A stretch of DNA of 63,616 nucleotides, counting the filler, from Perkinsus chesapeaki ATCC PRA-425 (taxonomy: Eukaryota > Protista > Perkinsozoa): the NCBI GenBank assembly GCA_013115145.1. It is 8 parts of 8 records of this genome, joined end to end, with 100 filler letters (N's around TTAATTAATTAA, not from the genome) between each part and the next. Parts side by side here need not be neighbours in the genome. Positions count along the whole stretch, not along the records: positions 2,682 to 22,659 come from JAAPAO010000628.1; positions 22,760 to 41,916 come from JAAPAO010000646.1; positions 42,017 to 51,919 come from JAAPAO010000923.1; 5 more parts are not named here. The stretch is one strand, 5' to 3'. Position 1 is the first letter of the stretch. Every line of letters starts with the position of its first letter. The notes beneath the pieces are model-generated. The model saw only the letters and a list, made by a program, of their open reading frames with translations. It did no database searches and was not told where the DNA came from. Below are positions 11,442-50,561 of this stretch, piece by piece. The translations under genes and the position numbers were made by a program.

Positions 11442-14400
11442 TCATTCTCTTGGGATCGTGAGGGGTTCCACGGCGCCAATCAGACTTCCCCTAATAACAG
11501 TATCGTCACGGAAAACACTCCGCATTAAAACATACGCTCGAGCCCGCTGCAGAGGAGCCCCCGCCGCCGCCGGCCATCGCCATCTTCTCGCTTTGCCTGT
11601 ATGCTTTCCACTCACTCTTGGTGTTCTCATCGGGGACAAGCTCGGGTGTACTCCCTCCGCAGTTGAAGCAGCAACACAACCTTCCAAACCAATACTGAAT
11701 CAAGAACCTGAGGACGACATAAAGATATTCTTCATAGTGCGCACGGGTATCTTACAAGAGCGATCCGATTGATTTAACACCGTTGAAGAAGACAACCGTG
11801 CCAAGCACGAAATACATAAAGCTGTTCGCCGAGATCGCCAGCACAGTCGCCGGGCCGGAAGTTCCCTCAGTAGAGCTCGTTACGGCCTACTCATAAAAAC
11901 GGTAAATAAAAATCGCTTCGCTCCGCCTACATAAATAAGAGCCAAATTGGAGATAGCCCAACAAAGCACAAGATAAGTCCTGAACTCGTTACGCTGCGCC
12001 TGAATATCCTTCTGCGTGACGTCGTTCGAATCCAGGCCTTTTGTGCCTGACAGAAAAAATTAATTTCTTATTCAAGTTGTCGATAAGGTTACCCCAGGAC
12101 AGGTCGTGGGTGTTGCAGAATGCGAAGGTTTGGAAGATGTTAATATACGTCGGTGACATAAACGTATATTGTAGGTAGTTGGCCAGTACGTGTACACCCT
12201 GAAGAATAACAAAGACATCTGAAAACTAAGATTAAATTTAAAGTGCGCAAGTTGAGAGACCAGATGCTTCCGCTGGATAATCGTCAGCCTTTGAAACGGT
12301 AGTCAGTGTAATCGTACGATAGAGCCGGTTGCCCAGGACACCGACGGTAACGAGTAAGGAATAGATGCACTAGGACGCACATGTGTGTCGGTGAGGGTAG
12401 AAGTACTTCCAAAGAGGAAGTTTGAGGGGTAAACCTGGTAAGGCCAGTCTAGGATACCCACGAGAAAACTATTTTTCCTGAGATGATTGTCAAGGAGATT
12501 CTATTCCACTTCCACGCACGTCTAGATACATCCAAGCGCTCGCCTACATACATTTCAGAAAGACCCTGTCGGAAAACCAGAGGGCAGCAGATAATCAGAT
12601 TAAGCGAATACCAACTAAGACTTCCGCACTGCTTCGATCCAGGGGTCATAGAGGAACACCAAATCTTCCGCGAAGGAATGCGCTCTACTTCTCATTTTGC
12701 TCTGGGATCATAATTTCTAAACTGATTCATATTTCACCTCAGCATTAGGAACAGTGTTACACACACGAAGAAAACATTCCTGCGAGGCTAGATTAATCCC
12801 TGGTTCGATCCCTGGTGGCTGCAACTTACTTCACCATGTAGAATAGCGACCACAACATAGCTGAGCACAGCAGCAAGGCCAATCGCCATCAGCACTATCT
12901 GGGACGATGTTACAACGTTATAAACAGCTACGGCGAAAGTAGCTATCATAAATATACCAAATACGAAGGATATCAACTTATACCTGAAAAACGACTAAGT
13001 CAAGTTTCAATGGTACGGCTTACAGTGCCCGCAAAGATCTTCGGGGTGAATCTGGCTGGGTACCCATAGCCAGAAGAAAAGTAGTAAACATGAGAATGAG
13101 GTATCTGGAATAACGCACTATAAAGATTCCTTCTCCTTATCAGCCAATAACGCACTGTAAAGATTCCTTCTCCTTATCGACCAATAACGCACTATAAAGA
13201 TTCCTTCTCCTTATCGGTCATTAACGCACTATAAAGATTCCTTCTCCTTTTCGACCAATAACGCACTATAAAGATTCTTTGGAAATAACGCACTATAAAG
13301 ATTCCTTGGAAATAACGCACTATAAAGATTCCTTGGAAATAACGCACTATAAAGATTCCTTCTCCTTTTCGACCAATAACGCACCATAAAGATTCCTTGG
13401 AAATAACGCACTACAAAGATTCCTTGGAAATAACGTACTATAAAGATTCCTTCTCCTTATCGGCCAATAACGTACTATAAAGATTCCTTCTCCTTATCGG
13501 CCAATACCGCACTATAAAGATTCCCTCTCCTTATCGACCAATAACGCACTATAAAGATTCCTTCTCCTATCTTACATGAACTGTATCACAATATACACTG
13601 CATCTGCTCCAGGAAATAAAAGATTCCCTCCATCAATCAGAAATGAATTCCACAATATAATGAAAGTAAGGTAAAAGATACCCACCAGGAACCACGACAA
13701 CAAAGTGTTCAACGCCGAGAACCTGACAAAAATACATGCCAAGTTTCACTTCGTAACAGAGTGCCCTCGAAGGGATAATAAAAGTACGACTCTAGCGATC
13801 TGAGCATCAAACAGTCTAGGTAGGGAGCGCAGTCAGTTATTCATAGGGGAAATATTTCATATCAGATTCCCACATCACCAAACATACAGCAATAATATCA
13901 ATATAAACAATAAAGTTATTAATCCCAATGTATCAGCCTTCCATCAGCTCTCGAGCGTCAGAAGCAGTCCCAAAGCAAAAGAAGGCATTAGATGCCTTTC
14001 ATCGATTCCCTCCTCTATGACCCCCCCAAACCTACAACAACTCGTTCATCAAGATAAGCTTTCTAAACCAAGAGTGCTTCGTAGTGAAGATCCTAAACTG
14101 CAGCAGACCCTGCCAAAGCGCAAAGATTTGTGCGAAGAACGATCCGTTCATCCACCGCCTTCTTTGCTTTATCAACGCGGCACAGTTGTCCGGAACCTGC
14201 GTGGAGGAAATGCAAGTGGGAGCAAGATTTCAAGTTACGTCGGTCACTGCAACGGAATTCTTAACATATTTTAGAGTGTTGGCGGCCGTTCGACTGCAGA
14301 CCAACTCGAGTGCGAGAATCCGATCTTCCGCAAGATACCTGATGACACAAATCGATCACTTGATCGATTTGTCGCTAGTACATATTGCCATAAAATGGAT

Positions 14401-48500: not shown

Positions 48501-50561
48501 TATGTAATATTTTTCCGAAAACTATTTTCTTGGTGAAAAATTGTCTTCAAGTTCGTCTTTAGGGTAAGTGAAAGGTCGTCGCTTCAAATCCCGAGGAGGC
48601 GTCGTACATCCCCGAAAAAAATCAGGATATCTTTTTTGTTTTTCCCGTAGGACAAAGGACCTTGCTTTGGAAAGTATTTACGCCACGGAAGAGCAATTTC
48701 ATAAAAATTGTCTTTCAGTCGATTTTTGTCGGAAGGAAATCATGCCGAAGAAAACCTGTTTTCCGGAAAATTGCAGAAGTTGGGTGAAAGAAAACTTTGT
48801 TTTTTGTCAGATACATTCTCGAAGGGGCATGGGATCCTCGCGATGTTTTAACTCGGAGTGAATTCATTGTTATATTTGTTATTACCATAGCCTATATAGC
48901 AGAAGGGATGATTGTATCTATTGTATTGGGGTGTATATTATGTTGCATGTAATAAGATATTCTTCATAGTGCGCAATTTTAAAGATATTCTTCATAGTGC
49001 GCAATTTTAAAGATATTCTTCATAGTGCGCAATTTTAAAGATATTCTTCATAGTGCGCAATTTTAAAGATATTCTTCATAGTGNNNNNNNNNNNNNNNNN
49101 NNNNNNNNNNNNNNNNNNNNNNNNNNNNNNNNNNNNNNNNNNNNNNNNNNNNNNNNNNNNNNNNNNNNNNNNNNNNNNNNGTGCGCAATTTTAAAGATAT
49201 ATGAAGTAAATTAGAGTTAATTCAAGGCATATCTTTATCATCCAGATGGCGCTCTTTTTTCCCTAAAGCTCCCTAAAACCCGATTTTCCTGATTTTTTCC
49301 ATAAATTTTCCTTCTTTTTTGTCAGGTATTTTACCGTAAGATATGCAGCATCTCCTCTGGTGATTCTCCCAACCGACGCTCGAAGCACTCAGGCTCGCAC
49401 TCGACAGAATTCAGCAGCTATCTCTAAATATTACAAAGATCATACCATCATTGTTGTGAGGTCGGTAAAATATTTTTTTCCGGAAAATTTAAGATTTTTT
49501 TCAGGACGATTTGTTCACAGTTATTTTTCGGGACGTCTGCATCGATCAAGAAAGCTGTGAAGGATATTTCCGGTGGAAACACCACGGCTTTGGTGTTCGA
49601 CCTCGGTTCGGTCGAATTCTCGGATGTGAGCGCTCTTGTAGCGATAGGGAAGATTCCAGGAGGAATCGATCAAGTGGGCGAGCGAAAGATAGAGTTGATA
49701 ATCTGCAATGTTAACGAAGAGTTGAAGTCTCAGTTGAAGAGATCGAGAGACGCTCATTTCATTCCCAAGGACACGCGGATATTCTCGGAGCTGGATTTGG
49801 GGTTGCAGTGGGCGGAAGATACGTGTCTGCTGGCGGATGGATTTGCAGTGAATCCGTCGATTAAGGGAAGTATTTCTGAGAAAAAATTGGTGGGAGAAAT
49901 TTTCGGAGATGTAAAATTGGCGAAATTGTGGCGGAAAATATTTATAAAAATTAAAGTGAGTTGTGGTGAAACGGTTTACCAAGAAGGAACGCTTGCGAAA
50001 GGATTGTATATTGTGGCGCGCGGTCAATTAAGTTTGTATTCTGGAGCTGCGAGGATCCATACGGCGATTCGAGGGGACAAAGGACCGGATATCGGAATAG
50101 CTAGACGAGTCGGACCGTATGGTGTGCCGAACAGTCCGGCAGCATTTCGTGGCGCGCGACGGACGCAAGTCGTTCAAGCTGGAGATGTACTATGTGAGAG
50201 AGCGGCTTATGGTGCATGCGCGCATACGAGGAGTTTAGTGGCTGATGAAGATGGGACGGAATTGCTGTTATTACCCCGAGATCGCTTGTTAAGATTAGAG
50301 CATGAAGAACCGTCACTCGCCATGAAGTTGCATAGAGCTTTGGCGATGAGAGCCTCGGGGATTTCGTGTGAGAAAGCAGGAATTTCCGGGCGCGCAAGAA
50401 TTGAGAGTGTGTGCTCTGAAGGGGTGAATGAGGATGATGATTTGATAAGTCGACTGCACGGTTATGGTGGCGGGAATTCACTTTTGTTGGTTCCGAGCCG
50501 GCGTGAGAATCTTTTAGCTCAACCGTGCACTGATGGACGAATGCCACCAGTCTCGGTGTGA
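45520..50561 (+). CDS. SulP-family transporter with STAS and cNMP-binding domains (yeast Vsb1/YGR125W-like architecture); start uncertain
   Basis: TM exons (GILSGFLV, EATAGGELNMQSEL...NL..G..GG), STAS VFDLGSVEFSDVSAL...ELDLGLQWAED, cNMP VYQEG...LYIVARG. Confidence 0.85.
48953..49200. repeat. 28-bp intronic minisatellite AAAGATATTCTTCATAGTGCGCAATTTT (N-gap 49084-49180)
   Basis: Perfect tandem units beginning immediately after the GTAAT donor at 48949. Confidence 0.95.

Follow-up and report, generated by a model that had tools for sequence, protein, structure and literature searches.

What are the many short introns of Perkinsus chesapeaki that resemble the 3' half of a tRNA gene, and why do they persist? 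The question arises from a 63,616-nucleotide (nt) stretch of the genome of strain ATCC PRA-425 (assembly GCA_013115145.1; hereafter, the window), in which about 20 GT-AG introns had originally been predicted to consist of tRNA 3' halves, each with the T-arm and its B-box (GGTTCRANTCC), a TFIIIC recognition sequence. On balance, we slightly favor the reading that these elements are decayed copies of tRNA genes, whole or truncated at the 5' end, in which an extended B-box is held by selection as a putative tauB/TFIIIC site.

Intron status in the window was judged against orthologous proteins. Perkinsus proteins were pulled out with an exon of the chitin synthase (CHS) gene as the query. One gene model labeled P. 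chesapeaki agrees at 100% with exons of the window, and the P. olseni orthologs of CHS, SulP, and a 913-residue LRR-PDZ protein (P0032) were used, all of them gene models rather than transcripts. Spliced alignment yielded 57 introns, 25 in the LRR-PDZ gene, 11 in SulP, and 21 in CHS at 11400-19576; LRR and PDZ, originally listed as separate hosts, belong to one gene in the P0032 alignment. Introns are bimodal in length, with 33 of the 57 no longer than 65 nt and most others of 190–680 nt. Weakly aligned boundaries (35141, 36685, 37802, and 39440) were fixed by eye before counting, and at the 35141 donor and the 36642 acceptor, where the aligner was offset by 3 nt, the originally predicted ends were retained by eye. 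The B-box matrix was built from 455 tRNAs (threshold, 13 bits or more) and the nhmmer sequence profile from 368 tRNAs. A metagenome scan with the LRR-PDZ ortholog did not find any Perkinsus locus, a search with the C-terminal exon of SulP gave no matches, and the 62 loci from a metagenome scan with tRNA-Gly looked non-Perkinsus and served solely as tRNA references. The public Perkinsus models P0018, P0021, and P0006 join adjacent genes (secreted protein, CHS, and RRM protein; SulP and PP2A activator) and therefore carry misleading names.

B-boxes are strongly enriched in the introns. The strict pattern occurs 12 times in the window, with two of these matches inside intact tRNA genes; 100 Markov simulations average 0.17 and reach 2 at most. 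At the matrix threshold, a B-box is found in 16 of the 57 introns, whereas 200 shuffles give 0.42 on average and never more than 3. The 16 comprise 11 of the 33 short introns, where 0.07 would be expected, and 5 of the 24 long ones (null 0.29); 10 are sense and 6 antisense to the host gene. Exons contain a single match in 7,323 nt, whereas introns contain 16 in 10,283 nt, so that the frequency exceeds both the shuffled and the exon controls proposed with the prediction. All 16 introns, 11 short and 5 long, have GT-AG ends and are absent from the orthologous protein. Chance origin was rejected on the Markov, shuffle, and reversed-window nulls, and a coding-sequence reading on the gaps in the spliced alignments; one core-pattern match at 12023 is exonic and due to chance.

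The B-box/T-arm sequences are present where the original prediction placed them, but the count of about 20 introns was too high. Eleven whole short introns are supported by the orthologs, and the rest are modules of longer introns or candidates, among them 23262, 24369, 30027, and 28397. Among the 21 items first listed, 10 match gaps against P0032 as whole short introns, and 4 are only modules of longer introns; 48443-48486 and 48564-48650 both lie within the SulP intron 48443-48810. Restoration of the reading frame on removal, claimed for most items, fails for the SulP items and two of the three CHS items, where excising just the listed stretch leads into stop codons. The intron 16247-16467 is real, with its end displaced by 5 nt (true end, 16242), whereas 41662-41774 and 30862-30908 are candidate introns supported by Pfam. 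Four sites had been overlooked (39440-39500, 28789-28845, 42959-42998, and 43132-43185).

The tRNA profile gives 31 matches at E<1 in the window, 4 of them tRNA genes, but none in the reversed window and 0–1 in each of 8 simulated windows. It covers 19 of the 21 items (exceptions, 28397 and 48564), and by region 24 matches fall in 11.4–49 kb and 1 in 1.5–11.4 kb, with nothing past 53 kb. Nearly the full tRNA length is retained in four relics (35141, 39423, 23262, and 28789), and in three of them the A-box lies in register at P<0.001 (30 sites examined; 3 of 27 relic sites). The matches and the diversity of the flanks support descent from whole tRNA genes; that several kinds and both orientations are represented had been proposed. 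The extended B-boxes stand outside any functional RNA polymerase III (Pol III) gene, as ARAGORN and Rfam at threshold do not call the intronic elements: in the whole window, Rfam finds only the three intact tRNAs, and single-element runs give nothing at 35141 or 15531. The tRNA-??? that ARAGORN calls at 48395-48481 is not a gene, since a conserved exon of SulP occupies part of it. Isotype names are soft. Among those first given by eye, Ile(AAT) finds some support in the anticodon loop at 36642, Thr in GTAA loops, and Glu in the whole relic at 23262; the piece at 24369, in addition, resembles pre-tRNA-Tyr. Assignment by best match is unstable, and we claim no isotypes.

The ends of the elements indicate the kind of source. 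None of the 16 elements has a CCA end, position 73 is a purine in 13, position 72 a pyrimidine in 15, and position 76 a T in 15, including 5 of the 6 antisense elements. A terminator-like T-run follows position 73 in sense and antisense elements alike; in the latter it cannot serve as a pyrimidine tract. The 24369 piece resembles the unspliced tRNA-Tyr of the window better than any of 2000 shuffles, a pair that was picked by eye. The missing CCA, the T-run, and this pre-tRNA-Tyr-like piece point to tRNA gene DNA or pre-tRNA rather than mature tRNA as the source, and the antisense elements argue for the DNA level rather than the RNA level.

The elements do not form one family, which bears out the original statement that they are not one SINE (short interspersed nuclear element) family. 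Flank identity between elements is 0.39 (maximum 0.74), compared with 0.35 for tRNAs of different isotypes; boundary repeats measure 0–3 nt in 11 B-box introns and likewise in 22 others, although old copies could have lost longer ones; and no fixed element ends were found, the donor offset ranging over 14–17 nt or more. This tRNA-like flank diversity, the ordinary boundary repeats, and the variable ends argue against one SINE or introner family. Other scattered sequences that descend from tRNAs and carry promoter boxes for Pol III are tRNA-derived SINEs and tailless tRNA retropseudogenes. In contrast to these, the Perkinsus elements lack a common body or tail and are 3' halves with a T-run and no CCA, not 5' heads; a tRNA-derived SINE was rejected, as no single consensus with an A- and B-box head, body, and tail was found.

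Decay and pairing were analyzed in the 16 B-box elements. T-stem pairs 49-51/63-65 are formed in 23 of 48 cases, against a mean of 23.4 for shuffled partners and 98% in real tRNAs. Register shifts do not alter this loss, and the folding energy of the T-arm equals the shuffled null. Positions 44-51, which were not used in selecting the elements, score as undecayed tRNA (none of 3000 samples at 0.4 substitutions per site reaches their score), whereas positions 63-65 score as fully decayed (enrichment -0.05 versus 0.99; all 3000 undecayed samples are higher). C48 is present in 15 of the 16 elements, compared with 64% of the tRNA library. In simulation, neutral decay matches the pairing only from ∼0.4 substitutions per site (P 0.028, as against 0.003 for 0.3 substitutions). 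At this level only 9% of simulated B-boxes pass, and the 57 introns would have to contain at least 178 elements. A randomized T-stem beside an intact B-box, C48, and positions 44-51 is a pattern that neutral decay does not yield.

The loss of pairing led us to reject a functional tRNA or RNA hairpin role. A role of the B-box as a branch point, for which the consensus is YTRAY, was rejected because it does not fit this consensus and its distance to the AG varies. We also rejected recursive splicing, in which the initial 44-50 nt of a long intron would be removed first, as neither 48486 nor 12780 shows a regenerated GT. In the structure of yeast tauB with a tRNA gene, the sole winged-helix contact outside the B-box is the pair equal to standard position 48 (converted numbering), tau91 touches downstream bases, and the modeled DNA spans about positions 38-77 (PMC11724288). 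The match of the kept positions to the tauB contacts, together with the indifference to orientation, makes a DNA-level tauB site the best reading; TFIIIC binding at the intronic B-boxes is what we infer from this pattern.

At least some elements or intron positions appear older than the species split. A P. marinus-type CHS protein, whose first exon is identical to that of P. marinus CHS, reads through the intron orthologous to 12199-12829. At offset 16 (17 in the window), this peptide could be encoded by the antisense 19-mer that covers positions 44-62, which holds for none of 1500 random intron-like peptides; the bare 11-mer is compatible with 62 of 1500. P. olseni models, in turn, run a few codons into the introns at the 37945 and 38978 junctions, and in protein-level comparison three intron positions of the window appear to recur in P. 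olseni or P. marinus-type gene models. Another P. marinus read-through, close to the 16242-16467 junction, is ambiguous: it agrees with a B-box oriented opposite to that of the window. The 631-nt CHS intron measures ∼87 nt in the P. marinus-type protein, which suggests that long introns may have expanded secondarily, in some cases through minisatellites (13105-13575 and 48949-49325).

Did the relics also create the introns? Eleven introns consist almost entirely of the relic. In sense copies the T-run immediately precedes the AG, and the donor GT lies at anticodon positions 35-36 at 34508, 30908, and 48443. At 39440, tRNA likeness crosses the splice site, the exon adding 7.5 bits, which 5 of 1000 random stretches of exon equal. 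The A-box at 35198 is completed by three bases of the exon, a fit equaled by 9 of 1000 random exons; the null for AGG-ending exons (1/125) probably includes the true exon itself. These relics hint at an insert larger than the present intron, in two cases, one with its donor placed by eye. For the five elements in long introns, invasion of a pre-existing intron is as likely as creation. Intron source and TFIIIC carrier, originally posed as alternatives, do not exclude each other: the sequence pattern favors TFIIIC for persistence, and the two splice-crossing relics hint at creation.

The B-box might only seem to be kept. If tRNA pieces were simply a frequent and cleanly spliced insert, ascertainment and refreshing by copying from tRNA genes or neighboring introns could give this impression. 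P. marinus is described as having five tRNA types in >500 copies, as well as Dada transposons that cut tRNA genes (PMC3706591); neighboring elements have common flanks, relics with damaged B-boxes are present (23262 and 48581), and the likeness across the splice sites at 39440 and 35198 fits such seeding as well. We nevertheless regard it as rather unlikely in view of the number of elements that the decay simulation demands, the element common to the window and the P. marinus-type intron, and the undecayed positions 44-51 beside decayed 63-65, since conversion from real tRNAs should repair both strands of the stem. Joining of flanks from different young tRNA copies at the B-box would break the stem without decay or selection, and the undecayed left flanks and a few left/right combinations that look swapped by eye agree with it; the right-strand triplets 63-65 are not tRNA-like, however, which leaves this idea hardly credible.

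A tRNA-derived mobile mini-element, SINE-like or a non-autonomous passenger of a Dada-like transposase, could instead have made the introns in introner fashion and conserved its own promoter or recognition site. The Dada-like transposase of the window, beside a tRNA-Phe with a disrupted A-box, carries a tRNA-like piece resembling 23262, and other motif families recur in introns. Because flank identity is no higher than expected from different isotypes, body, tail, and ends are not shared, donor offsets vary, boundary repeats are no longer than in other introns, and most elements lack an A-box, we consider such an element improbable. Still less probable is selection on the motif for a reason other than TFIIIC, be it another DNA-binding protein that reads the motif repertoire of the introns or avoidance of hairpins in tiny introns combined with a role at the RNA level. 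Several other 10-20-nt motifs recur in introns, one of them also in a P. marinus read-through, and stem loss is restricted to the 3' strand, as this would have it; on the other hand, the kept positions coincide with known tauB contacts, both orientations occur so that the T-loop is not always in the transcript, and T-arm folding energy does not differ from the shuffled null.

Selection for a tauB/TFIIIC site thus remains the reading we slightly favor, and several observations weigh against it. The 624 tRNAs of the library used for profiles and simulations are mostly from phages and bacteria, which makes flank scores approximate. Terminator ancestry and use as a pyrimidine tract can explain the T-run without TFIIIC. 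One of the 16 elements (18710; nhmmer E 3.1) may be due to chance, conservation across species would come from one back-translated peptide, and the other recurring motifs could mean that the B-box class is one of several insertion families. B-boxes are also unevenly distributed (11 of 25 LRR-PDZ introns versus 5 of 32 in CHS and SulP; Fisher p 0.036), and among 190 pairs the two with the highest similarity consist of adjacent elements (34882/35156 and 48460/48581); both facts fit local copying too, which neighbor similarity and the density in LRR-PDZ suggest.

With selection for tauB binding as the preferred reading, we propose that a copy of tRNA gene DNA or of unprocessed pre-tRNA, terminator included, would be inserted singly into genes, probably at breaks. 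The insert would be tolerated as tRNA genes bring splice signals: in sense orientation, the GT would come from the D-loop or the anticodon loop, with the T-run of the terminator acting as the pyrimidine tract; in antisense, the AG would come from the reverse of a loop or the A-box CT. The 5' half with the A-box would then mostly be lost, leaving about one tauB footprint. Binding of tauB would be retained, probably for nucleosome or chromatin organization of dense genes, and some copies may have spread locally among adjacent introns.

Table. Coordinates of tRNA-derived and candidate elements, their introns, and host or reference genes in the window
Position (strand)	Feature	Evidence
34508..34552 (+)	45-nt LRR-PDZ intron, sense tRNA 3' half	Donor GT = tRNA positions 35-36, T-run then AG; 15-residue gap versus P0032; B-box 15.8 bits
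34668..34711 (+)	44-nt LRR-PDZ intron, sense tRNA 3' half	Ortholog alignment, B-box score
34863..34916 (-)	54-nt intron of + strand gene, antisense tRNA 3' half	18-residue gap versus P0032; 17.8 bits
35141..35201 (-)	58-nt intron 35141-35198, near-whole antisense tRNA relic (profile 8-66); 3 nt in next exon	Relic 35201-35142: nhmmer E 4.4e-7; A-box in register, P 0.0006
36642..36685 (-)	44-nt intron with antisense relic; its anticodon loop, of Ile(AAT) type, is in register	nhmmer E 0.0014
36849..36894 (+)	46-nt intron, sense tRNA 3' piece	Ortholog alignment, B-box score
37493..37537 (-)	45-nt intron, antisense tRNA 3' piece with T-run after position 73	15-residue gap versus P0032
37945..37997 (+)	53-nt intron, sense tRNA 3' piece	Junction also has an intron in P. 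olseni models
38268..38320 (+)	53-nt intron, sense tRNA 3' piece	Ortholog alignment, B-box score
38978..39028 (+)	51-nt intron, sense tRNA 3' piece	17-residue gap; intron at that junction in P. olseni models
39423..39500 (+)	Near-whole sense tRNA relic (profile 3-69, 39423-39490); first 17 nt exonic; donor of intron 39440-39500 within D-loop, placed by eye	nhmmer E 2.4e-8
12780..12829 (+)	Antisense relic, 5' end of 631-nt CHS intron 12199-12829 (gene on - strand)	P. olseni ortholog
15531..15593 (-)	Sense relic within 679-nt CHS intron 15008-15686	P. olseni ortholog, profile match
16242..16467 (-)	226-nt CHS intron, sense relic near 5' end	B-box 16426-16416
48443..48810 (+)	368-nt SulP intron, two related sense relics, likely local duplication	B-boxes at 48460 and 48581
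41662..41774 (+)	113-nt amino-acid permease intron, sense relic at 3' end	AA_permease_2 profile continues 214 to 217; nhmmer E 0.0003
30862..30908 (-)	47-nt intron, sense relic	Donor GT = tRNA positions 35-36; TUSC2 match only in spliced frame
30600-31560 (-)	Membrane protein gene, host of 30862-30908	TUSC2-like C-terminal motif readable only with 30862-30908 spliced out
22907-25000 (+)	Two-repeat TRIC/glycine-transporter-like membrane protein gene, host of the 23262 and 24369 candidates	Weak Pfam match
23262..23336 (+)	75-nt candidate intron, near-whole tRNA relic, A-box present, B-box broken	Relic 23265-23319: Rfam tRNA 8-63, 12.6 bits, below threshold; nhmmer E 0.0006
24369..24410 (-)	42-nt candidate intron, antisense	Resembles unspliced tRNA-Tyr including the tRNA intron
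30027..30085 (+)	59-nt candidate intron of - strand gene, antisense B-box	Weak tRNA likeness, nhmmer E 0.21
28397-28414	Candidate B-box site in CRIPT intron	No tRNA profile match
28789..28845 (+)	Near-whole tRNA relic, A-box present, antisense to CRIPT and immediately upstream of its start	nhmmer E 0.012
42959..42998 (-)	tRNA 3' half, ends with T-run and AG	nhmmer E 0.0074
43132-43185 (-)	Weak tRNA-like relic	E 0.66
42388-42414 (+)	Weak tRNA-like relic	E 0.13
505..890 (+)	Intact tRNA-Glu, intron-containing tRNA-Tyr, and tRNA-Gly genes	Reference parents

Besides the B-box, short introns between 11700 and 50200 contain TTGCATTTCC, GCGCCACGAAAT, ATCGATCA..GATCGAT, CTTCGCTCCGC, GCACGCA, GTATCTT, and arrays of AAATTTTCC; examples are the introns 14197-14238, 14339-14381, 38064-38107, 38178-38223, 38450-38501, 47101-47145, and 47434-47485. 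With motifs chosen by eye, 26 of the 33 short introns have a recurring motif or a B-box. Some copies of the recurring motifs are exonic or follow stop codons, and TTGCATTTCC is read through in a P. marinus CHS model at an intron whose counterpart in the window does not contain it.

Other features lie outside the mapped genes. The Dada-like transposase in the region 52090-55850 has a DxxH motif, a C-terminal CCHC, a weak DUF6729 match, and frame changes near 54230. In the adjoining tRNA-Phe, the A-box region is disrupted and partly duplicated, and the tRNA-like piece with a B-box that resembles 23262 lies at 52501-52524, upstream of the Dada-like open reading frame. A 3' part of U6 snRNA (1204-1255 on the - strand; Rfam 30.2 bits, below threshold) stands beside the tRNA cluster; after it come inverted repeats and, at 1428-1437, a B-box that is palindromic. 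A fragment at 57000-57790, interrupted by an assembly gap, resembles a retrotransposon reverse transcriptase by eye.

How do the elements compare with known systems? They resemble the extra TFIIIC (ETC) sites of Saccharomyces cerevisiae and the chromosome-organizing clamp (COC) sites of Schizosaccharomyces pombe, described as B-boxes without an A-box, with conserved extra bases and no tRNA product (PMC3395662, PMC11724288). As in ETC sites, bases outside the core are conserved (C48, 44-51, Y72, R73, and T76). ETC and COC sites are also reported as conserved between species, for which the back-translated P. marinus-type peptide of one element may be a parallel, and TFIIIC binding has been shown at the yeast ETC sites, whereas at the Perkinsus introns it is suggested by sequence (PMC3395662, PMC11724288). 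The eight yeast ETC sites are intergenic and, in the text available, are not described as tRNA relics, whereas the Perkinsus elements are many, intronic, and often whole introns (PMC3395662). Boundary and positioning roles have been described for ETC sites (PMC3395662, PMC11811891, PMC12409998). Similar to the Perkinsus elements, Caenorhabditis elegans ETC sites on CeRep3 putative tRNA pseudogenes are tRNA-like and over-represented in introns, and are bound there by TFIIIC without Pol III (PMC6950938). CeRep3 is presented as one repeat family with A- and B-boxes lying within introns, whereas the Perkinsus elements have many parents, mostly a B-box only, and splice sites inside the relic (PMC6950938).

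The elements also share with introners, which occur in alveolate relatives, the formation of many short introns from recurrent inserted DNA, with both orientations possible; introners, however, are characterized as families similar from end to end, usually with terminal repeats and target duplications (PMC9860276, PMC12130899, PMC11282704, PMC7789003). Neither target-site duplications nor terminal repeats were found at the B-box introns. Two introner surveys never use the words "tRNA" or "Perkinsus" in their main text, and the accessible text of a review and of an Amoebophrya paper does not mention such introns. The Dada transposons of P. marinus come from the same genus and target tRNA genes, and a copy is likely present in the window; they are described as inserting into the tRNA A-box, and the Dada report, in its available text, describes no intronic tRNA fragments (PMC3706591). 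The tRNA abundance of P. marinus and Dada could plausibly supply fragments for Perkinsus introns. We found no description of tRNA-derived spliceosomal introns in the literature covered, which did not include subscription papers. The class is real, apparently undescribed so far as the literature was searched, of the ETC/tRNA-relic kind, and possibly a new route of intron gain.

It is possible, although we lean against it, that tRNA genes rather than transposons are a major source of Perkinsus introns, each insert supplying its own donor, pyrimidine tract, or acceptor and being trimmed to one tauB footprint, that thousands of intragenic TFIIIC sites exist genome-wide, and that tiny introns serve as protein-docking cassettes in a wider motif code. 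The elements touch two open questions, the origin of new spliceosomal introns and the reason why many tiny introns persist. The host is a clam parasite, and three ordinary genes supply the mapped introns. If tRNA genes seed introns, they would be a source missing from the introner surveys searched, as far as their main text goes. If the B-boxes bind TFIIIC, about a quarter of the introns in core genes would carry a chromatin-organizing site, in the sister group of the dinoflagellates.

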